Source: an uncultured virus (IMG/VR IMGVR_UViG_3300035505_000652) (taxonomy: Duplodnaviria > Heunggongvirae > Uroviricota > Caudoviricetes). From it: a stretch of DNA of 64,000 bases. Numbering within the stretch: the stretch's first letter is position 1; each line of letters begins with the position of its first letter. Below are positions 29,208 through 64,000 of this stretch, one piece after another. Where the stretch lies: IMG/VR virus record IMGVR_UViG_3300035505_000652; one strand, 5' to 3'. A program made the translations under genes and the position numbers. The notes beneath the pieces were generated by a model. The model had not been told where the DNA came from. It worked only from the letters and a program-made list of their open reading frames with translations, and did not search any database.

Positions 29208-29228
29208 AATATTCTCAGAGAGAATATT
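29208..29228 (+). repeat. Dispersed hairpin repeat, short type
   Basis: AATATTCTC-AGA-GAGAATATT followed by CCATTAAATAAAAA. Confidence 0.65.
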
Positions 29229-30822: not shown

Positions 30823-31190
30823 TTATACTACTTTACATTAAGGTTCTTAAGAAATGAGGGATGAAAATGCCATTTTAAATAAAATCCACACAATCCTATA
30901 AAAATTTAAAACCTTCCTTTTAAATTTAAAGCCATACCTTATATATATTCAAAGCTTCATATGCTTATTTAAAACAATAAAAGGAAATCCTTTACCATTT
31001 AAATAAATACAAACTCCATTTTCTTCTCAAAATTAAAAGCACCTCCTTTAATTTAGAAGGATGCCATATCTTTAAATTTAATAAGAGCTTCCCTTTTATT
31101 TTGAAAAAAGTTATTTATTTACCGCAGGGGCTTTCCCTATCCCAATGGATTGTTATACTACTTTACATTAAGGTTCTTAAGAAATGAGGG
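30823..31190 (+). repeat. Perfect 38-bp direct repeat downstream of rep (candidate origin element)
   Basis: TTATACTACTTTACATTAAGGTTCTTAAGAAATGAGGG at 30823-30860 and 31153-31190. Confidence 0.85.
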
Positions 31191-31445
31191 TTAAAAAGAG
31201 TATTTTTAGCAAAAAGAATAAAAACAAATGATTATAAAAATTAAAAATGAGGTTGGATTTGGAATTTTAAAGAATGATTTTGACTTGGAAATTGACATGG
31301 TTTTAAAAGCAAGCACCAAAACAAAGCCTTAGTGCTTGACCAAAACTTAAATAAACTTTTCCTTTTTATTTTTTTGAAAAATTTTAAAAAGAAAATCCCA
31401 TATTAAATTATATGATAGGCTGGAAGCCTATCCCATAAAAGGGTA

Positions 31446-42572: not shown

Positions 42573-42883
42573 TAAGAATATTTCCTCCTTTTAAAATATA
42601 TATAAAATTGGTTCTTTTTGTTTCAACAAAAAGCTTTTAAATAATATTTTAAAGGCACATTTAAATGCCTTTAATTGTTTTTAATTTAAAATGGATGATT
42701 TCTAATGTTAAATTTAAAGACAAATATCCTCCATTTTAAAAGCTTAAAAACTTTTCTCTTATAGAATACTCAAAAAATATGCAAATTATAATTTAATTTA
42801 GAATGATAAAATTACCCTTTGCATAAAATAAAAATAAATATACATAAAAGGAAAAGAGATTTTATTAAAAAAAAAGGAGGAAA

Positions 42884-43495
42884 TTGAATATGATAAATTT
42901 AATCAAGAGATATATGAAGTACGATATAAGGAAGATAAAAAAGACAAACAGAAGGATGAAGAAGGCATGTTTGAATATAAAGGATGTCAACATCTTTTGG
43001 GATTTGGACAATACCTTATATATGTTTTGTGAAAAAGGCAAGGATAAGGAAGCCGTAGCAAAAAGCATGGAGGAAGGATATTATTACAACATTCCAATTT
43101 TTGACGGTGCGGCCGCATTCCTTAAATTCCTTATGGGGTTATGCCCAAATATCTACATCTTGTCCAAGTATCCAAGAACCGGCGCGGATATAGAAAAGAT
43201 AATGAGCATTGAGAGGGATATGCCGTTTTTCCCAAAAAAGAATATCCTTTTAATTGGACTTGATGAGGATAAGGGGGAGGTTATTAAGAGCATTTGCGAC
43301 CCAAGCAAGGCAATCATCATTGATGATTATTGTGCAAACATTGTGGATGCCTATAATCAGGGTGTTGTCGGTATCAAGAAGACCTATTCTGGCAAAAAGA
43401 GACCTTGTTACCAGATAAAAGAGTTTTATGATTTGCTTGATGTTTTTAAAAAGCTCAACATTTCCCTTGAACCAAAAATGGAAAAAATTTCATAA
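42884..43495 (+). CDS. HAD-superfamily 5'(3')-deoxyribonucleotidase-like protein
   Basis: IFWDLDNTL (DxDxT), YILS and IIIDDY motifs. Start codon uncertain. Confidence 0.7.
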   Translation: MNMINLIKRYMKYDIRKIKKTNRRMKKACLNIKDVNIFWDLDNTLYMFCEKGKDKEAVAKSMEEGYYYNIPIFDGAAAFLKFLMGLCPNIYILSKYPRTGADIEKIMSIERDMPFFPKKNILLIGLDEDKGEVIKSICDPSKAIIIDDYCANIVDAYNQGVVGIKKTYSGKKRPCYQIKEFYDLLDVFKKLNISLEPKMEKIS

Positions 43496-43572
43496 CTAAG
43501 AGCCATCATCCCAGATGGTTCTTTTTCTTGTTGTAATGTCATGGCAAATCCATATCTGCCATTTAGAAATCC

Positions 43573-43592
43573 ATATTCCCGTCAGGGAATAT
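43573..43592 (+). repeat. Dispersed hairpin repeat, short type
   Basis: ATATTCCC-GTCA-GGGAATAT followed by TTCATTAAAAATAAA. Confidence 0.75.
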
Positions 43593-44086
43593 TTCATTAA
43601 AAATAAATAACAAGGAAAGCTTTCAATATATTAAAATGAAAATCCTCATCCCTGTTCCAATAAGAATTTACTAAAGAGTGAAATTGTTTTAATAAGGAAG
43701 TAAAAGAAAAATATTAAAGGAGATGGAAAAGGAATAAATAAGGATATATACGATATATGATAAATGATAAATACAAAATACAAGATATAAGAGATATGGA
43801 ATGATTATTGTTGTTTTGGAAGCGTATAGTGCATATTCAATGATTGTGATTATTATATATAAATCTAAATTAAAATCTTGTATTTGACAATAAAGAAAAA
43901 TAAAAGATAAAGATAAGGATAAAAATAAAACAAGGATAGGATAAATTATAATTGTTATTCAAGTATAAGACTTCAAAAATTCTTCTTTAAGATTTTAAAT
44001 TTTCTCTTTTTTTCTTCCTTCTTTTTCATCATCATTGTTTTCTCTCCTTGGAATATTTAAAGAATTTAATAAATTTTAATTAAAGG

Positions 44087-44112
44087 ATAAATTCACATGG
44101 ATGTGAATTTAT
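44087..44112 (-). repeat. Dispersed hairpin repeat, long type
   Basis: ATAAATTCACA-TGGA-TGTGAATTTAT. Confidence 0.85.
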
Positions 44113-44275
44113 AATACAAGATTAACTAAAGAAACTATATGCTTGGATGATAATAAATTTTATTAAAATAAAAAAGGATGGGGAAAGTTGACTACCCATC
44201 CTTTTAAAATAAATTATAAATTGTATTTAAATTATTGACAGTCTAAAACCCAATTTTTTTTGCACTTTTAGACGA

Positions 44276-45571
44276 TTATTTTTTAGCTTTGGAGGAATCA
44301 GCATCTTCCTTGGTTGTTTCATCTTCGGTCGAGCCTTCTTCCTCATCTGTTAAGGTTTCTTCTTCAACTTCCTCTGGTTCTTCCAATAATTGGAATTTGG
44401 CATTCAAAGTATCCTCAATTGCTTTTGTAGTCTCGCTTGTATAAATCAATGAATTGAGGTAATCTCCCACCATGGTCTTTAATTCATCACTGTATACCAT
44501 TTCATTTGCTTCAATTGCAAGGGTGGTCTTTTCCAATACATCTGCAATAGTGGTATCTTCATTTGCTTCCTGTATTTCAATATATTTTTCCAAGATTTCC
44601 TCATTGAATGTGTTTGTTGAATCAACAAATTGGGTATGGGACAATCCAAGCAATAATTGGTAATAATAAACCAATGATGAGGTATATTTGTCTATCATTA
44701 TATTGTAATATTCTTCATCAAGCTTCAATCCGTCTTCTAACATATTAATCCTTGTAACAATTTCATCAAGGTCATAAAGGTTGTTGCTTGACAACAATGT
44801 TGTATTATTCATTTCATAATTATTAAACTCTATATAGGCAATCATGCTTGGGGATATATAATCCCTATATTTTTCCAAGAAATTTGACAAATCCAAGTCG
44901 ATATAGAAATCCTTGTTGTCATTGAGGCTGTTCATAAAGAAGCCCTTTTCCTTTACCTCCAACAAAAATCCCTTTACCGTTCCATAATTGTTTGGAATGC
45001 TTTCTATGCTTGTTTTGTCATTAACTGATATATTATAGGTTTCGACAACAGTTTCCAAATCATATCCGACAACGCCCAAAATGGAGTTCAAGTTATTCAT
45101 CAAATCATAAAGGGAGTTTATATATTTCTTAATCATCATATCCCTCTCCCTTAAATCAAAGCTTGCTATGTTGGAATCTATCAAAGTAACCAAGTCATCA
45201 AGCTCTTCTTTGTTTGTAACCTTCCTGTTGTCAATGGATTTCAAAACCTTGTTTTTTTCATCCTTGCTCATGACTTTAGCATCTTCAATTTTGCTTGCTT
45301 TTTCAATAGTGTTGCTTGTGCTGGCAATATCCTCGACAGCTTCCCTTGCTTCCTTTGTTGCAGTGGAGGCTTCCGTCTCTGCCTCGACTTCTATCTGATG
45401 GCTTGCATCTTTAGCTATAGTCATTACAGACGGGGTTTCATAATCCAATACCATTGCATTTTCATCTATATCCAATGAGACGGTTTCAATTTCATCTTCT
45501 GCGGCATTTCTGCATCCAGCAAGCGTCAATATCATAATGCCGGTTATTATAAGTAAAGAATGTTTTTTCAA
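44276..45571 (-). CDS. Acidic lipoprotein, unknown function
   Basis: TTG start with AAGGAAGGTG RBS. Lipobox LAGC at residue 20. Acidic C-terminal tail. Confidence 0.8.
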   Translation of the reverse strand: MKKHSLLIITGIMILTLAGCRNAAEDEIETVSLDIDENAMVLDYETPSVMTIAKDASHQIEVEAETEASTATKEAREAVEDIASTSNTIEKASKIEDAKVMSKDEKNKVLKSIDNRKVTNKEELDDLVTLIDSNIASFDLRERDMMIKKYINSLYDLMNNLNSILGVVGYDLETVVETYNISVNDKTSIESIPNNYGTVKGFLLEVKEKGFFMNSLNDNKDFYIDLDLSNFLEKYRDYISPSMIAYIEFNNYEMNNTTLLSSNNLYDLDEIVTRINMLEDGLKLDEEYYNIMIDKYTSSLVYYYQLLLGLSHTQFVDSTNTFNEEILEKYIEIQEANEDTTIADVLEKTTLAIEANEMVYSDELKTMVGDYLNSLIYTSETTKAIEDTLNAKFQLLEEPEEVEEETLTDEEEGSTEDETTKEDADSSKAKK

Positions 45572-45572
45572 A

Positions 45573-46499
45573 TTATTGCACCTTCCTTATTTCCAATTTT
45601 TTTATCTTGTTTCTGCTTACCTTTATATTATATGCAAATTTTTCCACGTTGAACAGTCTTAATGGTTCAAGCAGATGTCTTGGATAGTTTGGCATTATTA
45701 CAAACATCCTTATATTTTTATGGGGGTATCTTTTTTGTATCTCCATGGGGTAATATGCGCATTGCCAGACAATTCTTTTGTCTGCCTTTATCTTTAATTC
45801 TATTATAACTATTCCATCATTTGCATCTTTTGCAAGGATATCAATTCTTCCCTCATCAAGGATAATCTGCCTTCCCATATAGGTCAAACCTTCCTCAATG
45901 TCTTCAAGATGTTGTATGATGTAATCCTCCAAGTCATTTTCAAACACCCCTTCAATAACATCATCCTCTCCTAAAACCCAGCTGATTTCATCTTCCAAGG
46001 ATGGGTTTATTGATTGGGAGAAGCCTTTGATGGTTATATTCTTAATTTCATTGACATCATACAGTTCATTAAGCCTTTCCAATTTAAATAAAATCAAATA
46101 TTGCTTTTCCTTGTTTTTATTCTTTCCAAACATTATGCTTGAATATTTTTGCTTTGCATATTTGGAAATCCCAATTAATTCCTGTTCCACATCCGCTGTA
46201 TGGTTCAAGTGCCATGAATACAAGATGTTTTTAAGGTTGTTTATTGGGGGGATAAAGCCTATCTTGCATTTTTTGTATTCATAGGATGTTATATTAAGCT
46301 CATTGAATATAAAGTCAAAAAATATTTGGCAATTAATATCTGTATACTTATATGACTTGATTGGATTTTCCTTGTATTCCATAAAAATAAAAAACCTCTC
46401 CATAATGAATGGAAGCAGACTGTCGTCATCCAATCCAAACCTTCTTTTCAATCCCTTCCATAAAACCTCTTCCAATTCATCTTCATAATTTATATCCAT
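45573..46499 (-). CDS. NucS/EndoMS-like (DUF91) PD-(D/E)XK endonuclease domain protein
   Basis: C-terminal ENDLEDYI...GRQ...GRIDILAKD...IVIIELK...Q...Y. The N-terminal half is unrecognised. Confidence 0.7.
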   Translation of the reverse strand: MDINYEDELEEVLWKGLKRRFGLDDDSLLPFIMERFFIFMEYKENPIKSYKYTDINCQIFFDFIFNELNITSYEYKKCKIGFIPPINNLKNILYSWHLNHTADVEQELIGISKYAKQKYSSIMFGKNKNKEKQYLILFKLERLNELYDVNEIKNITIKGFSQSINPSLEDEISWVLGEDDVIEGVFENDLEDYIIQHLEDIEEGLTYMGRQIILDEGRIDILAKDANDGIVIIELKIKADKRIVWQCAYYPMEIQKRYPHKNIRMFVIMPNYPRHLLEPLRLFNVEKFAYNIKVSRNKIKKLEIRKVQ

Positions 46500-46549
46500 A
46501 TAAAATATTCCTTCCATTTTTAAACAATTATCAAACCTTTAAATTAAAG

Positions 46550-46578
46550 ATAGGGGGAGGCTTTAAGCCTTCCCCTAT
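46550..46578 (-). terminator. Hairpin after secE
   Basis: ATAGGGGGAGGCT-TTA-AGCCTTCCCCTAT directly after the secE stop. Confidence 0.6.
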
Positions 46579-46581
46579 TAA

Positions 46582-46767
46582 TTAAAACAAACTTAGTACT
46601 GATGCCATTAATAGGTTTATAAGCTCTATAAACCCTATGCTTATAATTGAAGCAACTGCGACTATTATATATTCTTTGCCGACCTGCTTTTTGCTTGGCC
46701 AAACAACGCTTTTAAATTCATTGACAAACTCAACCAAGAATGCTGGCTTTTTAAATTTTTTCTTCAT
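46582..46767 (-). CDS. secE: Preprotein translocase subunit SecE
   Basis: EFKSVVWPSKKQV (ExxKVxWP motif) followed by a single TM. GGAGGG RBS. Immediately downstream of secY. Confidence 0.85.
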   Translation of the reverse strand: MKKKFKKPAFLVEFVNEFKSVVWPSKKQVGKEYIIVAVASIISIGFIELINLLMASVLSLF

Positions 46768-46781
46768 TATAAAACCCTCCA

Positions 46782-48107
46782 TTAAAATAAGAAACTTGAT
46801 GAAGAGCTTTCAAGCTGCTCTGATTCAATTATCTTATATGTTTCCAAAATAACGCCTACAACAATTATAATTGAAGTTCCTCCAAATGAGAGGCTTGAAA
46901 CATTAAACAATGATGAAATAATCATTGGAATTGTAGTAACCACTATAAGACACACGCTTCCCACGTTCCTTAATGTTTTTAACTTCTTGTCAAGATATTC
47001 CTCTGTAGGCTTTCCAGGCCTAATTCCAAGAATTACCCCTCCAGACTTCCTTAAATTATCAGCAACCTCTTCTGGATTGAATACCAATGTCGAATAGAAA
47101 TAAGCAAATGCGAATATCAATACGCAATAAAGGATAAATCCAAGATTATATAATGGATGGGTTATCTGGAACCAATTGCTTGAAGATAACGCTTGTGAAA
47201 TCTTATAGAAGATATTGCTTGAATCTACTCCAATCAATGTGACTATCAATATATACATTTGGAATAAGCTGTTTGTAAAGATGATTGGCATAACTCCTGC
47301 GATATTCACTTTTAATGGGATAAAGTTGCTTGCCTTGCTTGTGAGGCTCTTCATTCCCTTTACCTGTGACGAATATTGGGTTTTAACCCTTTTCTCACCG
47401 TCTTGAAGATATATAATTCCAATCAATGTGATTGATACAACCAAGAAGCATACGACTATTGTGGCTATCCAGCCGATTATGCCGTTATCCTTTATAAACA
47501 TTTCATATATGGTGCTTATATCTCCAGGAAATCTTGAAAGGATGTTCATTAAAAGTATTAATGAAATGCCATTTCCAAGCCCTTTCTTGTCTATAAGGCT
47601 TCCAAGAAAGATTTCAACTATTGAACCTATAACCAATGAAACTGATACTATTGTAATATAAAATGCATTGTTTTCAACAAGAAGACCATATGAGGCAAAT
47701 CCCAAAGTGATTGGAATTGCTTGGATAATCGCCAACACTCCAGCTACTATGTAATTCAACCTTTTGTATTTATCCTGTCCAACCTTGCCGTCTTTTGCCA
47801 TTTCATCCAATGCAGGCACGATTACCCTTAACAATTGCAATACGATTGACGCTGAAATATATGGGGTGATGCCTATAACGAAAATGGACATTTGTGAAAA
47901 CGAGTTACCAGAAAACATTGCAAACAAGCCAAACGCATTTCCTGTCTCAGAATTTAAGAATTGTGTCAATATCTCCCTGTTTATACCAAAGGTGGGGATA
48001 TTTGACAATATTTGGATAATGAATAATATTACCAAAGTAAACAATATCTTATGGGTTAGTTCTTTGTTTGAAAAAATATTGCTCTTTTTAGTTCTTTTTA
48101 CTGACAT
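46782..48107 (-). CDS. secY: Preprotein translocase subunit SecY
   Basis: KILFTL, SIFVIGITPYISASIVLQLL, KGLGNGISL, IPLKVNIAGVMPIIF, GIRPGKPTEEYL, FGGTSIIIVVGV. Start set to MSVKR after GAAAGGA. Confidence 0.95.
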   Translation of the reverse strand: MSVKRTKKSNIFSNKELTHKILFTLVILFIIQILSNIPTFGINREILTQFLNSETGNAFGLFAMFSGNSFSQMSIFVIGITPYISASIVLQLLRVIVPALDEMAKDGKVGQDKYKRLNYIVAGVLAIIQAIPITLGFASYGLLVENNAFYITIVSVSLVIGSIVEIFLGSLIDKKGLGNGISLILLMNILSRFPGDISTIYEMFIKDNGIIGWIATIVVCFLVVSITLIGIIYLQDGEKRVKTQYSSQVKGMKSLTSKASNFIPLKVNIAGVMPIIFTNSLFQMYILIVTLIGVDSSNIFYKISQALSSSNWFQITHPLYNLGFILYCVLIFAFAYFYSTLVFNPEEVADNLRKSGGVILGIRPGKPTEEYLDKKLKTLRNVGSVCLIVVTTIPMIISSLFNVSSLSFGGTSIIIVVGVILETYKIIESEQLESSSSSFLF

Positions 48108-48280
48108 ATAAAAATTCCTTTCTTTTTTAATACTTATCAATATTATAGCAAAAAATTGCATAATAGTAAAGCTTTTTATGCATGATTAAGATTTTTTTAT
48201 TAAGAAAAAATTTTAGGGGATTGGAATATAAAAGAAAAAGAAGCTTGAAAAACAAGAAATTCAAGCCTCTTTGGGTTTAA

Positions 48281-48496
48281 TTAAAAACCATGTGGTCCTC
48301 TTGGTCTGCCGCCATGTCCTGGTCCTCCATGTCCATGTGGACCTCCCTGGCCTGGACCTCCTTGTGGTGGAGGTGGCATTCCTGGTCCTCCATGTCCATG
48401 TGGACCACCTTGGCCTGGACCGCCAAAGCCTGGTCCTCCCTGTGGTGGTGGAGGTGGTGTTCCTGGACCTCCATGTGGTCTGTGATTTCCAAACAT
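48281..48496 (-). CDS. 71-aa Gly/Pro/His-rich low-complexity peptide
   Basis: GAAAGGA RBS then MFGNHRPHGGPGTPPPPPQGGPGFGGPGQGGPHGHGGPGMPPPPQGGPGQGGPHGHGGPGHGGRPRGPHGF. A/T-ending Gly/Pro codons fit this frame. Confidence 0.6.
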   Translation of the reverse strand: MFGNHRPHGGPGTPPPPPQGGPGFGGPGQGGPHGHGGPGMPPPPQGGPGQGGPHGHGGPGHGGRPRGPHGF

Positions 48497-48636
48497 ATAA
48501 TCAAATCCTTTCTTATTTATTTTTTTCGCACACAAAATAATTATATGTGCTGCAATTAAATATTATCATTTAGAAGCATTTCAATCAATGTAAAAATTGA
48601 ATTATGTCATATAAAATTATTTTTAGTTTGTTAAAA

Positions 48637-49158
48637 TTATGCCAATCCTAAATGATTTTTCAAGGCTTGATTAAGTTCAACCATACCCTCTTCATTCAAT
48701 GTCGCTATCTTGTATCCCAATTGAGCCTTACTGACAGTCCTAATCTGCTCTGCCTTTGCAGTCCCGCTTACAGATTGTTCTGAATCTGCCTTAACCTTTA
48801 TTATTTTTGAATCATTTATTACAAATTGCGTCTTGAAGTTGAACTCCGCCCTTGTAATAGGGATTATGGTGGTACAATTGCTGTTGTCATTAAACTCATC
48901 ATAGGAAACTATAATGCATGGCCTAACCTTGTTCATAACATCCCCCACATTTATTCCAAGGTCAACGCTCCATATCTCCCCTTTCTTGGGGACAGCCTGC
49001 TTGTACATTCTTTCTTCAATATCATAACTTATAATCTTTAATGCCCACTTTTCCAAATCAACAATCTTATCCTTGTCTTTTTGATTCATATAAAGCATTG
49101 TTTCCAATTTGTGTTTTACTTTATTATGTTCAGTTAAATCAAATTCTGGTCTATCCAT
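48637..49158 (-). CDS. PemK/MazF-family endoribonuclease with N-terminal extension
   Basis: KKGEIWSVDLG.NVG...KVRPCIIVS...TTIIPIT...AEQIRTVSK. GGAGG RBS before MDRPEF. Confidence 0.85.
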   Translation of the reverse strand: MDRPEFDLTEHNKVKHKLETMLYMNQKDKDKIVDLEKWALKIISYDIEERMYKQAVPKKGEIWSVDLGINVGDVMNKVRPCIIVSYDEFNDNSNCTTIIPITRAEFNFKTQFVINDSKIIKVKADSEQSVSGTAKAEQIRTVSKAQLGYKIATLNEEGMVELNQALKNHLGLA

Positions 49159-49218
49159 TAATACGTCCTCCGTAAATCTCTCCCAATTGATAATGTTAAG
49201 ATGCAACCTTGTGGATTA

Positions 49219-52200
49219 TTAATCCACAAAGTTGAATATATTCTTAACAATGTCTTTCTTGATGTTGTAATTCATATTTTCAAATAATTGGAAGCCTTCT
49301 TTTGCATAGAGCCTTACAGGGTCTTCCCCTCGATAAGACATTAATTTTATATCCTGTTTCAACTCATTCATGTCAACCAAGTGCTTAATCCAATAATTAT
49401 CAACAACAGTCAAAATGATTGTTGATGGGCTTGGCACCGGCGTATTTGCATTTTCAAGCTTTTCCTTGTATTTTTCAAATAATGATTTGCCGTAAGCTAA
49501 AATTTCTTCAAATGACTTTCCAGTAATTTCATTCTCCTTCATATGAAATTCCTTGACAAAATACTTCACAAAATCCTCATTGCTGATTTCATTATACTCC
49601 CTTGTAAGAACAACCTCGACCATGTTATCTATCAAAGGGGTGCAGTCATGGGTAAGCACGTAATCCCTTTGCTCATAAATGTCAATTCTCTGGTTGTTTA
49701 GGATTTTATCATATTTTGTTGTATTCTTCCTTGTTTCAAAGTGCTGGCTTTCAAGCTTTTTCTGACAGTTGCTTATAATGTTTGAAAACAACTTATTGCT
49801 GACAGGAAGCTCATCGCTTTGGTCAAGGTTTTCAATCTTTTTGAGTTTGTCTGATGTGATATAGGTTATAAGCTCGTCTTGGAATGAAAGATAGAATTGG
49901 GATTCCCCTGGGTCTCCCTGCCTTCCGCTTCTTCCCTTCAACTGGTTGTCAATCCTTCTATTTGACGCCCTTTCTGAAGCTATAATCTTCAATCCTCCAA
50001 GCTTCCTTGTCTCATCAGTAAGCTTTATATCTGTTCCACGTCCAGCCATGTTTGTCGCAATCGTGACAGCTCCCTTCTGCCCCGCGTCTGCTACAATCTT
50101 GGCTTCCCATTCAATCTGCTTGGCATTCAATAAATGGTGGGGTATCCCTTCCTGCTTCAACAAGTTTGACAATTCCTCGCTTTTCGCTATATCAAGGGTT
50201 CCAACCAATACAGGTCTGCCAATCTTATAATTTTCTTTTATATCCTCAATAATGGCTTTGTTCTTAGCCTTCTCTGTCACGAATATTATATCATGCTTGT
50301 CATTCCTTATACATGGCTTGTTTGTCGGGATGACGACAACCTTCAATCCATAGGTTTCCTTAAACTCCTTCTCCTCCGTCTTGGCGGTACCTGTCATTCC
50401 AGAAAACTTTTCATATTGCTTGAAGAAGTTTTGGTATGTGATGCTTGCCATTGTAATGGATTCTTCTTTTACATATACGCCTTCCTTTGCTTCCAAGGCT
50501 TGGTGGAGGCCGTTTGAAAACCTTCTTCCCTCTGCAATCCTTCCTGTATGCTCATCAATAAGGATTACCTGACCGTCCTTGACGATATATTCCTTATCCT
50601 TCTTCATATCAAGGTTCGCCCTTAAAGATTGTTCCAAATGATGCCTTAACAATGTATTTTCAATATCAGAATAATTTTTTAATCCAAAAAACTTTTCTGC
50701 CTTGGTTACTCCAATCTCAGACAATGTTATAAGCTTTAATTGCTTGTCGATTTCATAATCATCTGGCTTTAAGTGCTTTACGAATACATCACAAATGGTG
50801 TAAAGGTCATTTGCAGACCCGCTTGGTGATGATATAATCAAAGGCGTTCTTGCCTCGTCTATAAGGATGCTGTCCGCCTCATCTATTATGCAAAACGAGA
50901 ATGGCTTGCATTGGACTTTATTGTTGATGTTCTTAACCATGTTGTCCCTTAAATAGTCAAATCCCAATTCAGAGTTGGTTATATAGATGACATCCTTTGC
51001 ATAAATATCCCTTCTGTCTGCGCTGGGCGTGTCATGGATTATACAATCCACGCTCAATCCAAGGAACTCATATAACGGCTTCAATGTCTCCATATCCCTG
51101 TTTGCAAGATAATCATTTACCGTCACTACATGGACCGACTTGCCGCTTAATGCATTCAAGTATGCTGGGGCGACTGTTACAAGGGTATTGTGTGTTACGA
51201 CATATTGCCCTACAAGGAACAAATGCTCGTCATTATCAACCTCAAAGCAAACCTGCTCTTCCATTCTATTGAGGTATTCAATGCTTACAATTTCAATTTT
51301 TGAAATATCCTCTTTTGATGAAGCTTCTTTGTCTGCAAGGGCTTTGAATTTATCAACATCATTTGTAAATATGCTTACAATGTATTGTTCATTTTCATCC
51401 TTGCCGCAACTGCATGATAATCCCAAGGAATAAACGACTTCCATGAAATCATCCTTTAAATCCTCTGAATATGTTGAGAATGTCAAAGCCTCATTTTCTT
51501 TAATGAAGTTGATGTTGCCTGAAGCCTCCAGCATACCCTTAACCAAATCCCATCTTTGCTCAATTGATGAAACCTTGTAAATGGAAGGGATTCTTCTTTC
51601 CTTCAAAATAGTCCTTGTCATTTCATCATTTTCTATTTTGAAATCATAATTGCTTTTTGTCTTTGAAATGCTTGAAACAAGGCTTCCAAGCTGATAAGAC
51701 GGATATGGAAGTTCCTGCTCATCATATTCAACAGCTGAACATAATGGAATATAAAGCTTCCCATGTCTTTTCATTAATTCCTGCGTAGTAAATGTCAATA
51801 AAGCGTTCCCTTCATAAATGCTCCATAAATGCTCGCCTGCGCACTCAATCTCTCTGCTGTCTGCCAAAGTAACCTTATAAACGCCAATCATTCCCTGCGG
51901 ATATACTCCAATAACCTTTGTAGGCTTTCCAAGTCTGTCAAATAAATAATCCCCAACTTTGATATCCCCTACAACCTTCCATCCTTTTGGCGTCGGGATT
52001 GGAGTGTTTATTGGATTTGCTTTTCCTTCTCCAGTCTTCATTTCAGCAATCTTTCCTTGGTGGAGGACTACCCCGCCAATCATTTGTACATCATAAGGCC
52101 TCATTCCTAAAACCCTGTCACTTGCTTCTCTTACAACTGCGAATGCTTCTGGGAGGATTTGCTCCAGTTTTTTACCCTGTTTAATCTGTTCTTTAAAATA

Positions 52201-52305
52201 AGGTGTCTTGGCTTGCAATTCTTCATCAGACAAATTCTTCATTTCATCTGCATAAGAATTAATTTTTTTAACGTATTTTCTTGTTATGTTGCTAACCTGA
52301 CTCAT
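49219..52305 (-). CDS. secA: Preprotein translocase ATPase SecA, intein-containing, lacking C-terminal SEC-C zinc finger
   Basis: AFAVVREA, IAEMKTGEGK/TL, VHVVTVNDYLA, DEADSILIDEARTPLIIS, GMTGTA, ATNMAGRGTDI, RRIDNQLKGRSGRQGDPG. GGAGGT RBS before MSQVS. Confidence 0.95.
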   Translation of the reverse strand: MSQVSNITRKYVKKINSYADEMKNLSDEELQAKTPYFKEQIKQGKKLEQILPEAFAVVREASDRVLGMRPYDVQMIGGVVLHQGKIAEMKTGEGKANPINTPIPTPKGWKVVGDIKVGDYLFDRLGKPTKVIGVYPQGMIGVYKVTLADSREIECAGEHLWSIYEGNALLTFTTQELMKRHGKLYIPLCSAVEYDEQELPYPSYQLGSLVSSISKTKSNYDFKIENDEMTRTILKERRIPSIYKVSSIEQRWDLVKGMLEASGNINFIKENEALTFSTYSEDLKDDFMEVVYSLGLSCSCGKDENEQYIVSIFTNDVDKFKALADKEASSKEDISKIEIVSIEYLNRMEEQVCFEVDNDEHLFLVGQYVVTHNTLVTVAPAYLNALSGKSVHVVTVNDYLANRDMETLKPLYEFLGLSVDCIIHDTPSADRRDIYAKDVIYITNSELGFDYLRDNMVKNINNKVQCKPFSFCIIDEADSILIDEARTPLIISSPSGSANDLYTICDVFVKHLKPDDYEIDKQLKLITLSEIGVTKAEKFFGLKNYSDIENTLLRHHLEQSLRANLDMKKDKEYIVKDGQVILIDEHTGRIAEGRRFSNGLHQALEAKEGVYVKEESITMASITYQNFFKQYEKFSGMTGTAKTEEKEFKETYGLKVVVIPTNKPCIRNDKHDIIFVTEKAKNKAIIEDIKENYKIGRPVLVGTLDIAKSEELSNLLKQEGIPHHLLNAKQIEWEAKIVADAGQKGAVTIATNMAGRGTDIKLTDETRKLGGLKIIASERASNRRIDNQLKGRSGRQGDPGESQFYLSFQDELITYITSDKLKKIENLDQSDELPVSNKLFSNIISNCQKKLESQHFETRKNTTKYDKILNNQRIDIYEQRDYVLTHDCTPLIDNMVEVVLTREYNEISNEDFVKYFVKEFHMKENEITGKSFEEILAYGKSLFEKYKEKLENANTPVPSPSTIILTVVDNYWIKHLVDMNELKQDIKLMSYRGEDPVRLYAKEGFQLFENMNYNIKKDIVKNIFNFVD
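51187..52020 (-). mobile_element. Class-3 intein (278 aa) with degenerate LAGLIDADG endonuclease, inserted in SecA Walker A
   Basis: GEGK|ANPINTPIPTPKGW...ECAGEHLWSI...QVCFEVDNDEHLFLVGQYVVTHN|TLV. Removing it restores GEGKTL. Confidence 0.92.
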
Positions 52306-52879
52306 AAATATAAAATTACCTCCAAAAAAATTCCTTTCACAATTTTTTTTATTATACAAAATTTTTTTTAAACTTTCAAGTGTTTTTTTGTTTGAACTTT
52401 AACATATTTGTCAGTTTTTAAAAGATATTGTCTTAAAAAAACTTTTAATAAGTAAAATTTTAAAAAGTTTGCTTGAATAAAAATTGTGGCTTGTTCTAAA
52501 ATTGTAGATTTTGCTATTTTAATATATAACCTACATTCACCAGTTTTACAAAAGCATCATTCCATAAAACCAATGAAAGTAGGTTGTCTTTTTTTGTTTT
52601 AAACTATAGGGAAACAATACAGCTCAAATTGAATAAGTTGCAATTCAAGCTTAAAGATGTTTTTCTTATATTAATATATGCTTTTAATATAGGGGAATTT
52701 GGAAAATTTTGCCTTATAATGGGATTTTTACAAAAATATTTTGTAAACAAAATTCTTTTAATAAAAAAGTTCTAGACATTATTGGCATGTTTTATATGGT
52801 TTTGCGTATAATTAAATTGAAACCTATAAACATAAATAAGGAAAATCTAAAAAGATTTATTAAAGAAAGGAGATTTTTT

Positions 52880-59700: not shown

Positions 59701-60811
59701 CAAATTAAAGTTCTACTTGAATTATGGCAGCAAGATGGGATTCCAGATTTTACCGCCATCTATAAACCAGTCAGATGTAAACTTCACATTAAGTGAGGAT
59801 GCTAACAGCATTATTTTTGGTTTAAGCGGAATTAAGTGCGTGGGCAAGATTTCCAAGAATATCATCCTTGAAAGAAAGGAAAGAGGTTTGTTTACGACAT
59901 ACCAAAACTTCCTTGAAAGAATGATTAAGTATCAGGGAATTAATAAGAAGGCAGTTGAGGCATTAATCAAGGTTGGAGCTTTGGATTGTTTCGGAGGTTC
60001 AAGAAAGAGCAAGATGGATTATCTTGATACTTTTATAGCCTTGGTAAAATCCGACAAATCAATTGCAATGCCTGGTCAGGAGACGATTTACGAGCTTGCA
60101 GAAGAGACGCTTGAAGCTGAGAATGTAAAGCTTCTTAAAAATATAGAAATCCCAAACGAGGATGTCGAATATGAAAAAGGTCAATTCCTTGATTTCGAAT
60201 ACGAGTTTGCTAGTTTCTATATTACAGAGCATCCTCTTGATGAATACAAAGCTGTAATCACTCTTAATAAGTGTGAGGATATAGCAACAATACTTGACAA
60301 GGGTGAAAGCCTTAATGCAAATGAGGAATTTGAAAGCCAGATTTCAGGTATTATAACAAGCGCGCAAAAACGCTATGGAAGGAACAACAAGCCATTCATG
60401 ACATTTACTATAGATGATGCATCTGGTTCAATGGGCGGCGTGGCTTGGAATAATGTGCTTGAAATGGATGAAAGTGCATTTGAAGAAGGTACAAAGGTTA
60501 TCCTTTCTGGAAGGATTTCCAAAAATGATTTTGGAACACAAATTGCAGTTTCAGATGTAACAAAGCTTGAGTCTTTAAATAACAGCCATATTACATTGGA
60601 ATTATATGCGTTTGAAGATTCGAATCTTGTAGCAGCTCAATGGTACAAAATTTATGACCTTTGCAACAGTGTGCCTGAAGGTCCAATGCATATTTCATTT
60701 ATCAAGGATAATACAGCATTTCCTATGAAATCATGTCCTTGGAGCATAGACTTATATACAAAGCTTCGAGATATATGCACTGAGAAGAATATTAAATATT
60801 CTGTTCGATAA
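56732..60811 (+). CDS. dnaE: DNA polymerase III alpha subunit (DnaE)
   Basis: PHP domain (LHTHTEYSILDGA, AITDHG, HLILLAKN, TTDAHY), GPGRGSGAGS, PDIDVD, LLKMDFLGL, AFNKSHA and a C-terminal OB fold. AAAGGAG RBS. Confidence 0.95.
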   Translation: MKITLNNEKLLENIRKELDEANANVKNPNEFLTCRKEGDTINVYLNVNNNKVMSFPAKYAPCFNYKDTFVGKIDFEKDALQIVTFADLHTHTEYSILDGANRIKDLSKKYAYYGAITDHGVMYGVVDFYKKMHDQHKHPIIGFEAYTDSWEAFTMLPLDETSADEKLKLTKVNKDCKYHLILLAKNETGYKNLVKLCSFGQSHKGGAYTQRPKVYYEELLAHKEGIVVLSACIAGELPTLLAYGKYDEARKMVAFFKENFGDDYYLEIQRHAYSKSEFESKYIEKLSLELGLPITYDEVEKAYLQVLDGTMTKKDFKARYTKKIYDEMELVVKEDRTNKGIEQLAKEFDVKVVATTDAHYLNEDDAYMHDALLCNQVGKKITDTERFQFNGKGYYVHTVEEMEQLYNDKPEVLINTLEVAEKCVFDFKFGEYKLPKFPIPAGYTDKEYLRKLAYDGFEERFKWLPTKKKEEYKARLEFELSVIFKMGYQGYFFIVWDYIRYAKQNGIYVGPGRGSGAGSIVLYCLHITENLDPIKYELLFERFLNPDRISMPDIDVDFEFELRENVISYCKQKYGEECVSRIITFGTMAAKAAVADMCRVLDYPIELGTKIKKLIPNDVGMTIKKAMLENQELTDLYNSDPQAKEVIDLSIKVEGLKKNTSVHACGVVISDADITNYCPQTFTKDDDTGEYIRTTQFTMGECEEIGLLKMDFLGLRTESVIKEAINDIKAHYGVSINHYDTTSLPLNDVYVYANVLATGKTVGVFQLESSGITSTIMQLYQDIPAKVKAIDSSNVLTEEAKQKQREELGDQCFERLIAGISLYRPGPMDEIPNYINGMLDEKNIHYDCKQLEPILKNTYGVIVYQEQVMLIVRALAGFTPGQSDTIRKAMGKKKQEILDEYKPYFINGSGNDIDPHTGKPYGIVGCKANGINEIVANTIWSKMESFAKYAFNKSHAAAYAVVAIQTAWLAYYYPIIFLKANLNVYKGNHDKLKFYLNYGSKMGFQILPPSINQSDVNFTLSEDANSIIFGLSGIKCVGKISKNIILERKERGLFTTYQNFLERMIKYQGINKKAVEALIKVGALDCFGGSRKSKMDYLDTFIALVKSDKSIAMPGQETIYELAEETLEAENVKLLKNIEIPNEDVEYEKGQFLDFEYEFASFYITEHPLDEYKAVITLNKCEDIATILDKGESLNANEEFESQISGIITSAQKRYGRNNKPFMTFTIDDASGSMGGVAWNNVLEMDESAFEEGTKVILSGRISKNDFGTQIAVSDVTKLESLNNSHITLELYAFEDSNLVAAQWYKIYDLCNSVPEGPMHISFIKDNTAFPMKSCPWSIDLYTKLRDICTEKNIKYSVR

Positions 60812-61003
60812 ATTAAAGCACCCTTTCCTATTGGATGGGGTGTCTTTTATTTTGTAAGTGATTTGGAATGTGAATTTAAATGATTGTTAAAAAATATAAC
60901 AAAAGCATCTTATAATATTCAAAATTATTTAAACATAATGCCTCTTGAAGCTTATCAATAATAAACTTTATTTAAATATGTAAGATTTCCATGGTTTTAT
61001 ATT

Positions 61004-61029
61004 ATAAATTCTCATCCATGAGAATTTAT
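61004..61029 (+). repeat. Dispersed hairpin repeat, long type
   Basis: ATAAATTCTCA-TCCA-TGAGAATTTAT. The ~40-bp left flank closely matches that of the 35925 copy. Confidence 0.85.
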
Positions 61030-61156
61030 CTTTTAAATAAGGTATCCTTTGTTTCTTTTATTCCATTGGTGAGTAAAGAGATGAATAATAAAAAGAAGAA
61101 AACTCTAAATTATAAAGAAAACTTATCAAAGCCTTATTTTTGTTTTTATATCTTTT

Positions 61157-61182
61157 ATAAATTCACATCCTTGTGAATTTGC
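61157..61182 (+). repeat. Dispersed hairpin repeat, long type
   Basis: ATAAATTCACA-TCCT-TGTGAATTTGC. Confidence 0.8.
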
Positions 61183-61276
61183 CTATTAAGATGAAATATA
61201 TTGGACTTTATTAATTTAAAATTATAAAATATTCTTTAATTCCAAGGCATAAAATATAAGGAAATGGAGGGATTGT

Positions 61277-61804
61277 ATGATGCTTAAAAAAAACAAACGA
61301 ATTGAAACAAAATTTAAACCCATAAACGACCAATTAACTTTAAAAAATAGGCTTTTATTGGAAATTAATCCATTAAGAGATGCTATTAAAATAAACTTGT
61401 ATATGATGTATCCATACTTCCAATTTATTGAAGATGGAAATTATAAAAATTTTATCAAACAATGTTATAGTGATTTTTTGCATTATCTTGATACCGGAGA
61501 ATATACAGAAGAACAAAAAAAACAAAAAGATTATAAGGAAAAATGTTCGTATGAATCATGCATATATACTGATATTAGAATCCCTCCACAATACAAAGCA
61601 TTCATTGGCACAACTTGCAATAGCATTTTATTAATTCCCAAAATTCCAATACCATTATCCAAAAAGAAAGAAATTACAAACAAATTAGTTGAAATTTCAA
61701 TAGCTTTCTCAAAATGTCAAGATGATAATAAAAATAAAAATTATAAAAGAATGATATCGCCAACAGATGTAAAAAAAATGTATGAAGATATTATTAATAA
61801 TTGA
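61277..61804 (+). CDS. Hypothetical protein
   Basis: GGAGGG RBS, 175 aa, hairpin after the stop. Confidence 0.65.
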   Translation: MMLKKNKRIETKFKPINDQLTLKNRLLLEINPLRDAIKINLYMMYPYFQFIEDGNYKNFIKQCYSDFLHYLDTGEYTEEQKKQKDYKEKCSYESCIYTDIRIPPQYKAFIGTTCNSILLIPKIPIPLSKKKEITNKLVEISIAFSKCQDDNKNKNYKRMISPTDVKKMYEDIINN

Positions 61805-61955
61805 TTTTCTAAAGCCCAGCTTATTTAAGCATGGGCTTTCCTATTTTTTAATGGTGTTTTAAATTGAAGATTGGATTATTAAATTTTATATTAAAAGAGT
61901 TAAAAGCATATAATAATATGATTAAAAAGCACAAGTGTTGAAGGGATTGATTTTT

Positions 61956-62207
61956 ATGATTTATGAAGTTAGAAAAGAACCACATTCAGATATGCAGATA
62001 AGGGAATTTTTAGCAAAATATGGGTTGGAGGATGCTTGGGTTTGGATAAGGACAAATATCCTTGGACAACCTATAACATTTATAAGTGCCTTGATGGTTT
62101 GCTTGATATTGTTTTTAATTGCCAGAAAGTGTGACAGTTTATTCATGCAGATATTATGTGGTTTTGCTTTTTTCTTTTTGCTTATAGCAAAAGTATTTAT
62201 CGTTTGA
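61956..62207 (+). CDS. Small membrane protein (paralog 1)
   Basis: MIYEVRK start, two hydrophobic helices, similar to the next ORF. Confidence 0.65.
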   Translation: MIYEVRKEPHSDMQIREFLAKYGLEDAWVWIRTNILGQPITFISALMVCLILFLIARKCDSLFMQILCGFAFFFLLIAKVFIV

Positions 62208-62225
62208 TTTAAAGGGGGAATTTTT

Positions 62226-62477
62226 ATGAATAGAAGTTGGCAAAATTCTTTAAGGAATATTAATTTGAAGGAAACATTTGAAAGTTGGGGATTGGGAGGC
62301 TTTTATGAATTTATGAGAAGCCAAATCATAATGAACAACATGAGGTTTATGTGTATATGCGCATTCCTATTTATTATGGTATTTATGGGGTTCTACTTGG
62401 ACAGCACCCCGATAAAGATTATAGCTACAATCCTATTGTTATTTATGATATTCTTTCGATTTACAATTCTTTTCTAA
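62226..62477 (+). CDS. Small membrane protein (paralog 2)
   Basis: AAGGGGG RBS, two hydrophobic helices. Terminator AAGAACCTCT-AAAAA-AGAGGTTCTT follows. Confidence 0.7.
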   Translation: MNRSWQNSLRNINLKETFESWGLGGFYEFMRSQIIMNNMRFMCICAFLFIMVFMGFYLDSTPIKIIATILLLFMIFFRFTILF

Positions 62478-62565
62478 AACAAGAAGAACCTCTAAAAAAG
62501 AGGTTCTTTGTTTTATTTTTAAAATCTTAAGTATATTCTATTTTTATCCAAACATATCTTAAAAC

Positions 62566-62608
62566 AAAAAAAATGCACAAGACAAGCCCATACGTCAAGT
62601 CCTGCACA
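62566..62608 (-). terminator. Intrinsic terminator of predicted ncRNA
   Basis: Minus strand TGTGCAGGAC...GTCTTGTGCA-TTTTTTTT. The stem works with G-U pairs only on this strand. Confidence 0.7.
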
Positions 62609-63075
62609 CCTTATAATATATCTGCGAATTTTTATAAATGTCATTGGGAAATAAACACTCATTTGATGGATGTAAAGGTTTTGGTTATTTTGCTTTAGTG
62701 TGTTAAAAGTATGTCTTTTGTAATGCTGCTTGGAAATTCTTGGGGGGTGTTCATCTCCAAACCTTATCTTTAGTAAAGCTCATCTTTTGTAAAATTTATC
62801 TTTAGCGAAACCGCATATTGTGAAATATGCAGCAGTTTTGTCTTTTGTAAGCAAGATTTCTTTCGTGTACAAAATGTTTAATTCTTCATTTGTAAAAAGA
62901 TTATCATTTGTAAGTTGTCTTTGGTATGTTTAAAATCTTAAATTATCTTTAGTAAGTCCCATACTTTTTGGGAAATTTGTCTTTTGTATAAACCAACCTT
63001 TGTATTTTTTCAATTCCATTAAATGTCATTTGAATTTATCTGTTGCATTTTGATAGTCCATCAAACGGTGTCTAT
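62566..63075 (-). ncRNA. Predicted ~510-nt non-coding RNA with 11-12 copies of UAC(A/U)AA(A/U)GA(C/U)A
   Basis: Promoter, 5'/3' closing stem, internal hairpins, U8 terminator, no ORF >=60 aa (see findings). Confidence 0.6.
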
Positions 63076-63081
63076 GTATAT

Positions 63082-63110
63082 ATTATATTATATGATGGGA
63101 TATTTTACAA
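63082..63110 (-). promoter_or_regulatory. sigmaA promoter of predicted ncRNA
   Basis: Minus strand TTGTAA(63110-05)-17 nt-TATAAT(63087-82). Confidence 0.7.
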
Positions 63111-63229
63111 TAGATTTACCCTATTTGTAATTTACATTTTTGCTAATTTAAAATAACAGTTTTTAGTTAGATAAAATCAATAAAAACTATTAAAAGGATG
63201 ACAATATGCCATCCTTTCACTTTTTTAAT

Positions 63230-63880
63230 TTAATATTCTTTTTGTTTCATAAATTTTACACTCAATTTATATGATACATAAATGATAATAAAGAATGCAG
63301 CCATTCCAAGAATGCCTCCCCATTTCATGAGGAAATCATTTAATTTCAAGATAATCTCAACTGTATGGTCAGACACATTTGTTACACTGTTTAAGAAATA
63401 TGTAAGGACGGCCGTTATACCCATTATAACCGCAATACATGACAAAAGCATAATCCTGCTCTTTTCGCCGCCATACTTGATTTGGAATGGGAGCATTATG
63501 CATTGGAACAACATCATGGACATGAATATTACCAAGGCTTGTACGACATATTCTACCAAATCCCCATTATATACAAATCCAAGGATAATCGTGGAAGCAA
63601 GCCATCCAACAAACGTGGTTATCGTGGCAAACAAATATTTTTCCTGAACATAAACCTTTCTATCCAAAGGCATTGTCAAGAAATATTCTATACAATTGTC
63701 ATATTCTTCCAATGACAATGAATTAAATCCCAACAAACAAAACACCATTGTTATATATGTCAATACCATCACTATGGAATCTGGCTTTACAAATCCATAA
63801 AAAAACATACAAACCAATGGGAACATAAGCTTTTTGCTTCTAAGCATCAATCTAAAATCCTTATAAATTAATTCCTTCAC
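63230..63880 (-). CDS. ABC-2 type transporter permease
   Basis: MKELIYKDF, YFLTMPLDRKVYVQEKYLF and LPFQIKYG motifs, six TMs. Followed by a hairpin at about 63193-63217. Confidence 0.85.
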   Translation of the reverse strand: MKELIYKDFRLMLRSKKLMFPLVCMFFYGFVKPDSIVMVLTYITMVFCLLGFNSLSLEEYDNCIEYFLTMPLDRKVYVQEKYLFATITTFVGWLASTIILGFVYNGDLVEYVVQALVIFMSMMLFQCIMLPFQIKYGGEKSRIMLLSCIAVIMGITAVLTYFLNSVTNVSDHTVEIILKLNDFLMKWGGILGMAAFFIIIYVSYKLSVKFMKQKEY

Positions 63881-64000
63881 CCTTATCCCCCCTCATAACT
63901 ACTTCAATCATATCATCAATATCAAAATTGCTTCTTATATATGGAAGGTAAGCATCTTTCTTTTTGATTATCAATGAATAAAAATCATCATCCTTCAATT
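63861..64000 (-). CDS. C-terminal fragment of probable ABC transporter ATP-binding protein (5'-truncated)
   Basis: Open frame LKDDDFYSLIIKKKDAYLPYIRSNFDIDDMIEVVMRGDKGEGINL* overlaps the permease start. Identity inferred from context. Confidence 0.55.
   Translation of the reverse strand, partial: LKDDDFYSLIIKKKDAYLPYIRSNFDIDDMIEVVMRGDKGEGINL

Follow-up and report, generated by a model that had tools for sequence, protein, structure and literature searches.

A candidate stand-alone RNA carrying repeated UACWAAAGA motifs, with related arrays in gut Clostridia

Short direct repeats in an intergenic region can act as DNA sites, can act in a transcript, or can do nothing at all, and the question of which applies is raised by a unit at 63110-62566 on the minus strand of a 64,000-nucleotide stretch of DNA (the window, that is, the whole stretch analysed here; IMG/VR record IMGVR_UViG_3300035505_000652, filed as an uncultured virus of the Caudoviricetes). 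Read along the minus strand, the unit consists of a promoter-like site, a 5' segment, an A-rich stretch that carries the repeated motif, a complement of the 5' segment, a hairpin and a run of eight U residues (U8). A preliminary description had taken it for a non-coding RNA of about 510 nt built like a protein sponge. To the full reading, that the region is a stand-alone minus-strand non-coding RNA of roughly 450-500 nt, a member of a wider class, and by inference a multivalent decoy, we give an even chance. The non-coding RNA itself is well supported, whereas the sponge mechanism is no more than plausible.

Are the repeats more numerous than expected by chance? Written for the plus strand, YRTCWTTWGTA matches the window at 12 positions, all on that strand, and 7 of the 12 fall within 62712-62988 (280 nt). 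Shuffled sequences give a mean of 1.29 matches (s.d. 1.23, largest 4), and none of 100 shuffles reaches 12. As for the 11-12 copies claimed earlier, 7 of the 12 positions are exact and four (62797, 62857, 62884 and 62916) are one-off variants scoring 11.5-16.5 bits, whereas the copy placed at 62995 scores below 8 bits and is unsupported. The 11 copies together score 11.5-17.5 bits, a measure that is circular because the matrix was derived from the same copies. With this matrix, the rest of the window holds four minus-strand and two plus-strand sites of at least 12 bits. The copies are arranged as follows.

62709-62991, minus strand: motif array of 11 copies, located by pattern and matrix, start-to-start spacing 14-53 nt
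62975-62991, 62941-62957, 62913-62929 and 62899-62915, minus strand: motif copies 1-4
62881-62897, 62854-62870, 62836-62852 and 62794-62810, minus strand: motif copies 5-8
62778-62794, 62762-62778 and 62709-62725, minus strand: motif copies 9-11
62687-62703, minus strand: weak twelfth copy, ACACACUAAAGCAAAAU, 10.4 bits

In the sense of the RNA, the aligned copies have the consensus YUUACWAAAGAYAA. Their spacings are irregular (53, 16, 16, 42, 18, 27, 18, 14, 28 and 34 bp), and Tandem Repeats Finder (TRF) reports from the unit just a 16-nt repeat of 2.5 copies. According to the predicted pairing, motif bases are unpaired at 0.66, compared with 0.44 for bases in the spacers.

The features that frame the array, together with the hairpins within it, are these.

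63082-63110, minus strand: promoter-like site, TTGTAA (63110-63105), N17, TATAAT (63087-63082), 10/12 matches, predicted start at about 63075
63057-63075, minus strand: 5' arm of the closing stem P1, AUAGACAC + CGUUUGAUGGA, pair probability 0.83-1.0
62651-62670, minus strand: 3' arm of P1, UCCAUCAAAUG, bulged A, GUGUUUAU, from duplex energy and pair probability
62991-63001, minus strand: 5' arm of the inner helix P2, AAAGGU+UGGUU, from the minimum free energy (MFE) fold, a single-sequence prediction
62674-62686, minus strand: 3' arm of P2, AACCA..ACCUUU, from the MFE fold; P2 has 11 bp
62810-62833, minus strand: 10-bp hairpin GCUGCAUAUU-UCAC-AAUAUGCGGU, -10.4 kcal/mol, z -3.07, equalled in 3/200 shuffles
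62728-62762, minus strand: 10-bp hairpin GUUUGGAGAU...AUUUCCAAGC, -10.8 kcal/mol, equalled in 1/200 shuffles
62566-62612, minus strand: intrinsic terminator, a G-U-rich 14-bp hairpin (62612-62570) followed by U8, from folding against shuffles

The closing stem proposed earlier is longer than had been claimed, as 63075-63057 pairs with 62670-62651 over 19 bp with a single bulge. Its duplex energy is -23.9 kcal/mol versus -11.8 ± 1.9 in shuffles, none of 500 of which equals it, and one in 500 random 24-mers taken from the window pairs as strongly. The plus-strand analogue reaches -17.7, weaker owing to two G-U pairs. The U8 terminator was likewise confirmed, its hairpin having -16.6 kcal/mol on the minus strand (0/200 shuffles) versus -4.2 on the plus strand (72/200). 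Two internal hairpins had also been described. The one formed by GCUGCAUAUU and AAUAUGCGGU stands out from shuffles, whereas UCCCA/UGGGA, at -5.6, is unexceptional (28/200). Folded as a whole, the unit has a z-score of -1.99 on the minus strand versus +1.11 on the plus strand.

Does the unit encode a protein, or form part of a neighbouring transcript? The open reading frame (ORF) list of the window bears out that no ORF of at least 60 aa lies in 62566-63110. Two smaller frames, one of 30 aa with a TTG start and one of 47 aa that runs through the terminator, have no Shine-Dalgarno sequence and were judged non-coding. Terminators are found on either side.

63191-63219, minus strand: terminator of the upstream ABC-2 permease gene, 13 pairs
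62483-62509, both strands: two-way terminator downstream of the unit, closing the convergent small ORFs at 61935-62477

Lying between the permease terminator and the two-way terminator, the unit is thus set apart as a separate transcription unit. It does not correspond to a family in Rfam, where a search of the window gave 0 matches at the gathering score. The 18 sub-threshold matches in 62300-63400 lie mostly on the neighbouring terminators and include none of the CsrB/RsmZ family or of CrcZ, and those that overlap the unit are very weak (snR10, 19.4 bits; L13-Bacteroidia leader, 18.0 bits).

Does the motif occur in this arrangement elsewhere? Metagenomes scanned for three copies of the motif at a spacing other than 15 nt yielded at least 119 loci. 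Among the matches listed, 50 loci have at least five core copies, and the 69 with fewer were left out. Twenty-one of the 50 were judged irregular and non-coding and represent at least 15 distinct arrays of 5-9 copies each. The remaining 29 were dropped as regular tandem or coding repeats, or as ambiguous (L272); they include a 45-nt tandem (L266) and ORF-like KRPTKETYKRDLQ repeats at a G+C of about 0.4 (L283, L290, L352 and L353). The window shares the traits of the retained arrays, with at least five same-strand, irregular, non-ORF copies in about 300 nt (nine by UACNAAWGA, 11 by the matrix), an A-rich motif strand and a hairpin+U terminator downstream on that strand. The UACWAAAGA-repeat RNA elements of gut Clostridia are apparently an undescribed class. 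Rfam gives nothing above the gathering score for the 15 related loci, and the portions of the literature available to searches for the motif strings or for mraZ/rsmH repeats contained nothing relevant.

The genomic contexts of the 15 listed arrays are varied, though one recurs. Seven lie between mraZ (PF02381) and rsmH (PF01795), a placement given by Pfam for both genes in L237, L246 and L312 and for one gene in L288 and L289, and by translated gene ends in L330 and L322. At these loci a conserved hairpin (CAGYUGGUA...UACCARCUG) comes after the array and is succeeded, ahead of the start of rsmH, by a U-rich stretch, GCUAUUU. Another array (L314, 45% G+C) is in the mraZ 5' leader, its eight copies preceded by four GTGG boxes and followed by the start of mraZ. 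L264 precedes an Ldh-like gene and follows a thioredoxin gene and its terminators (by Pfam), and L325 is placed likewise by its 82% DNA identity to L264. Three arrays (L305, L300 and L304) stand alone, each with a promoter-like site, the array and a strong hairpin+U, all on the same strand. L247, located after fliS, has a terminator at its end, and L342 is flanked by two reading frames that point the same way. The MraZ encoded at L246 is that of uncultured gut 'Clostridia bacterium' metagenome-assembled genomes.

In every listed array with a callable flanking gene, the A-rich strand is the sense strand. Eight of the 15 are followed in the sense direction by a hairpin+U of -13 to -28 kcal/mol, and the antisense values for seven of those eight are -1.5 to -6.3, that of L247 being -12.6. 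The preferences that flank the core (U at -1, A at +10 and A at +11) have frequencies of 0.78, 0.78 and 0.89 among nine copies in the window versus 0.55, 0.60 and 0.78 among 103 copies elsewhere. Across the same 103 copies, position 4 of the core is A in 74% and U in 19%. In three orthologous mraZ-rsmH spacers, the motif columns are 81% identical versus 65% elsewhere. Overall, arrays of the motif occur in contigs of 23-45% G+C.

Six of the mraZ-rsmH loci (L237, L246, L288, L312, L330 and L322) have two conserved hairpins flanking the array. The first of these is an AU-rich stem, UAUAUAACUUGCAAAAGUYUAUAUA, which overlaps the mraZ stop codon; its loop is GCAA, or GAAA in L288 and L322. L246 and L330 have a possible mini-ORF of 8-10 codons (MKNT..KILK) between the array and the second hairpin.

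Is the window unit found in RNA? Eight gut metatranscriptome runs, from eight studies, match parts of 60500-64000. Four were examined, and X5-X8 (shares 0.12-0.06) were left out. All four examined runs, which come from four studies, have contigs on the unit; together these contigs span 62624-63060, with 0 differing letters.

62624-63053, strand not given: contig of run X1, 430 nt, entirely within the unit
62667-63060, strand not given: contig of run X2, 394 nt, entirely within the unit
62742-63060, strand not given: contig of run X3, 319 of its 320 nt within the unit
62693-63059, strand not given: contig of run X4, 367 nt, entirely within the unit

In 4/4 runs the upstream contig ends fall at 63053-63060, agreeing within 8 nt and without loose ends. 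These shared ends, which lie 15-22 nt downstream of the predicted start and coincide with the inner margin of the 5' arm of P1, are a weak hint of a true or processed RNA end. No contig in any of the four runs lies in 61202-62605, where missing cover is not counted as evidence of silence. In X1, the contig that covers the 3' end of dnaE extends as far as 60823, 12 nt past the stop codon, and then runs into Illumina adapter (window 60811-60823), which suggests that the sequenced fragment ended there.

How might such an RNA work? The consistent sense orientation of the arrays, and their placement in operon transcripts or in promoter-terminator units, indicate that the motif acts in RNA, and the tolerance of A or U at core position 4 favours a protein as binder over a single pairing RNA. 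In the reading we favour, the primary transcript would extend from about 63075 to about 62566, and the 19-bp closing stem with the 11-bp inner helix would join its ends. The weakly structured A-rich domain so enclosed would display about 11 copies of UACWAAAGAYA, mostly single-stranded, among small hairpins. Each motif would bind a conserved factor with sequence specificity, which would more probably be a protein than an RNA. Arrays within mRNAs would subject those mRNAs to the factor, acting either on read-through of the hairpin or on mRNA stability, and a free-standing, stem-closed RNA would titrate the factor away from the arrays of dcw and ldh mRNAs. We infer from this analysis that the window RNA may sequester a protein.

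A broader scheme can be proposed, which we regard as possible though rather doubtful. The arrays may be the platform of a conserved Clostridia RNA-binding regulator that gates dcw at mraZ-rsmH and a few metabolic genes, with the free-standing RNAs as its CsrB-like antagonists. Clostridia dominate the gut, and their post-transcriptional control is little charted; to our knowledge, they have no established counterpart of the Csr/Rsm or Crc sponge-RNA circuits. If true, the scheme would amount to a new Csr-type circuit of global post-transcriptional control, built on another protein and another motif and aimed chiefly at cell division. Should the arrays gate read-through from mraZ into rsmH, ftsL and beyond, they would constitute a new control point of cell division. 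The finding in any case supplies a searchable motif and a set of loci (dcw-entry arrays and free-standing RNAs) for binder fishing and regulon prediction.

What could the protein be? Several known binders were considered and rejected. The UACAU site of MazF/EndoA differs from the motif at the fifth base; for Hfq, no more than two A-R-N triplets occur in a row; CsrA would need GGA, which the motif lacks; the array is not C-rich as for Rho; and the boxes of MraZ are GTGG. The GTCTTTT/G sites of cold-shock proteins and the boxA of NusB/E resemble the opposite, T-rich strand, contrary to the strand evidence. A KH/R3H pair of the KhpA/KhpB type is a guess that draws on two points: the available text on KhpA/KhpB connects them with cell elongation and division, and that of a 2026 preprint has the KH/R3H groove accommodating a 10-mer, with no sequence motif defined in the portion seen.

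The logic of the proposed decoy resembles that of several known RNAs. Like CsrB, RsmY and RsmZ, which titrate CsrA/RsmA, the window RNA is free-standing, with its own promoter and terminator and irregular multiple copies of a motif, and, as proposed, the motif would also be present in target mRNAs. Unlike in CsrB/RsmZ, the motif is UACWAAAGA rather than GGA, and the copies lie in single-stranded spacers rather than in hairpin loops. The earlier statement that the motif differs from that of CsrB/RsmZ holds, as the 510-nt RNA has five GGA and two ANGGA, none of them within a repeat. The same is true of CrcZ, whose motif is AAnAAnAA and occurs 0 times in the 510 nt. CrcZ and CrcY, which titrate Hfq/Crc in Pseudomonas, share with the window RNA an A-rich, single-stranded repeated motif and a small RNA (sRNA) format of about 400 nt; they differ in taxon, in that motif and in having an Rfam match, which the window RNA lacks.

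Other systems match in part. Rli55/EutX is an sRNA decoy with the same protein-binding element as the mRNA leaders it regulates, a structured ANTAR two-hairpin present as a single copy. The present motif is likewise found both in cis, where it precedes a terminator-like hairpin in mRNA leaders, and in trans, as part of a free-standing RNA. It is, however, linear, 9 nt in length and repeated 5-12 times, and the two forms come from different organisms. TRAP and HutP act on Bacillus leaders with (G/U)AG triplets at 2-4-nt spacing, which fit a ring protein. The mraZ-rsmH arrays are similar as short-motif arrays directly before a hairpin, the setting in which TRAP and HutP control read-through; they differ in their 9-nt core and a spacing of 13-60 nt. 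Type III antitoxin RNAs (ToxI) are also repeat-bearing non-coding RNAs and neutralise a protein, but their units, of about 34-45 nt, are exact tandem copies and immediately precede a toxin gene, whereas the window has only the 16-nt unit of 2.5 copies reported by TRF and motif spacings of 14-53 nt. Downstream of the unit are two terminators and convergent small ORFs; no toxin gene, nor any other gene on the same strand, comes next, and the window has its PemK-like ORF at a distance of 13 kb.

Arrays that accompany mraZ also call to mind the sites of MraZ itself, which are direct repeats tied to the start of the dcw operon. According to the accessible part of a preprint (bioRxiv 10.1101/2022.02.09.479790), MraZ-binding repeats are three copies of GTGG[A/T]G with 4-nt spacers and a 10-nt period. 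The UACWAAAGA arrays differ in sequence, spacing and place. In L237, L246, L288 and L312, mraZ separates the two, with the GTGG boxes on its upstream side and the UACWAAAGA array on its downstream side; the arrays are therefore not MraZ boxes. In the window, no GTGG series is present at or upstream of the promoter.

A number of observations weigh against the decoy reading, or against parts of it. The promoter of the preliminary description, TTGTAA-N17-TATAAT, is present, but sites of its class are not enriched in this AT-rich region (15 found versus 14.2 expected), and because similar sites are equally common in shuffles, it carries little weight alone. P1, P2 and the other helices are predicted from a single sequence, and the minus-strand fold of the whole unit is modest, being equalled by 7 of 100 shuffles. 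The other free-standing units (L305, L300 and L304) show no evident closing stem. The core identity of the related arrays is partly by construction, since the search pattern was the window motif. The same 12-nt core also makes up probable DNA iterons in the replication protein O genes of phages. The factor to be titrated is hypothetical, and an invariant core of 9 nt is long for one bacterial RNA-binding domain. As to the RNA libraries, the contigs carry no strand information, and presence in such a library is not proof of transcription. Contig depths are 6.8-26.5 on the unit compared with 0-32.6 at the dnaE 3' end, and the unit has about 2-4 times the depth of the permease gene where the latter is covered. 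This falls short of the abundance typical for sponge RNAs, although contig depth is a poor measure. Finally, the deepest contig ends at 62624, short of the predicted terminator.

Could the repeats instead be DNA sites, whether iteron, centromere-like, copy-control or roadblock, for a protein that binds double-stranded DNA, such as a Rep_O-type initiator, with the transcript incidental or serving to activate the site? A motif of about 12-13 informative bases suits DNA-binding proteins, and all copies point in the same direction, several neighbours being 14-18 bp apart; same-orientation direct repeats of about 12-15 bp are also what iteron arrays of plasmid origins, copy control and the lambda type consist of. 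Moreover, TGTCTTTTGTAA is identical to a 15-bp repeat with conserved codons that occurs in 3-4 copies within Phage_rep_O genes of IMG/VR phages. This match, however, was obtained by searching with the window motif pattern itself, and the window has no Rep_O relative. Nor is an initiator gene nearby, as no Rep or Par gene is found among the window ORFs scanned (the far side is seen for 900 bp only). The spacing of 14-53 bp is irregular and out of helical phase, and the terminator is strand-specific, as is fitting for an RNA, with a closing stem that includes G-U pairs. Related arrays are always sense and lie inside operon transcripts or promoter-terminator units, neither of which DNA sites need, whereas the 118 viral loci listed include 0 irregular non-coding arrays. 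We therefore consider DNA sites unlikely. A base-pairing RNA, in which the motif is a multi-copy seed or a sponge site for an RNA carrying UCUUUWGUA, has a similarly small chance. A conserved single-stranded motif of 9-12 nt fits the length of an sRNA seed, the C/U variation after GA would be tolerable opposite G, and a terminator hairpin is present, as in base-pairing sRNAs. Position 4, with its A and U, is too varied for one partner, though, and no complementary RNA was found; in the window, plus-strand sites of the position weight matrix are scattered.

The arrays may also have no dedicated function, being a transcribed, A-rich, minisatellite-like repeat or an insertion resembling a miniature inverted-repeat transposable element (MITE). 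The region is AT-rich and of low complexity, and the closing stem may equally be a 19-bp terminal inverted repeat; for a MITE, however, no target-site duplication is visible beside the inverted ends. Against lack of function, the orthologous mraZ-rsmH spacers retain the nine core bases even as the intervening sequence and the spacing change, the orientation is consistent, a terminator follows most arrays, and the same motif recurs across the range of G+C contents given above. We judge this explanation quite improbable. The stand-alone, motif-displaying RNA remains the reading we prefer.

Are there arrays of this kind in viruses? Among the 118 viral loci listed, 16 have at least four clustered copies, and none is of the irregular non-coding type. 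All of these 16 are regular or coding, save the irregular sets of L426 and L390, both of which are inside ORFs. A first viral motif scan (119 loci listed) had yielded 9-nt coding tandem repeats and chance pairs, and a second (36 loci) yielded Phage_rep_O repeats, giant-virus tandem repeats and simple sequence; all were set aside. In 15 of the 18 viral loci with a period of 15, the repeat is in an ORF of 236-417 aa, and 4/4 of those tested are PF04492. The Rep_O repeat codons are identical across diverged proteins, and the repeats are therefore probably origin iterons inside the gene, an arrangement also known from phage lambda, whose origin iterons are within the O gene.

The loci with Rep_O repeats are L011, L120, L124, L126, L127, L129, L133-L135, L137, L140, L143, L145, L147 and L150, with the array at about 1501-1537 of each. 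The tandem repeats, TGTCTTTTGTAATAG, are in a linker coding for TKD(T/N)I, and a second repeat set follows. Two further arrays, on large virus contigs, were judged unrelated to those of Clostridia. One is an intergenic (ACAAAAG)n-like run with ACAAAAGA-like words (L128, an IMG/VR contig of 380 kb, 1480-1830), and the other is an intergenic 28-nt tandem unit with at least six copies, also with ACAAAAGA-like words (L122, 1490-1730).

Is the unit, then, part of a mobile element? The preliminary description had called the RNA element-encoded, and this part was not upheld, as the window has no phage or plasmid hallmark, the related arrays are in chromosomal contexts (mraZ-rsmH) and the 118 viral loci listed provide none. 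A blastn search with 62500-63230 against phages and plasmids gave no match. The neighbours of the unit are DnaE, three unassigned small ORFs and the upstream ABC-2 permease (63230-63880; PF13346 by Pfam). DnaE is about 41% identical to enzymes of Lachnospiraceae and other Bacillota, and in an alignment of the DnaE clade against viral contigs the best identity is also 41%. Used as anchors, the ABC-2 permease, a 175-aa ORF and DnaE found no confirmed relative in genome, viral or metagenome contigs; closer relatives of DnaE (99, 66, 66, 65 and 59% identity and below) are present only in Logan and ENA assemblies.

The remainder of the window has several features of its own. On the minus strand, 2-28000 is occupied by one ORF of more than 9,333 aa, a giant protein gene that extends past the window start. 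Adjoining the start of this gene, the region 28001-31400 has a G+C of 0.23-0.28, and its sole ORF of at least 90 aa is at 29613-29918. A cluster resembling accessory secretion systems, apart from a ribosomal operon, is at 38571-52359 on the minus strand. It includes a 1,333-aa LPXTG protein with about ten SpaA/prealbumin-like repeats, SecY at 46782-48161 and the PemK/MazF-like ORF (48637-49206), which has a 73-aa N-terminal extension. Its SecA is 1,046 aa in length, with an insert that splits the DEAD domain and weakly matches an intein (E = 0.005).

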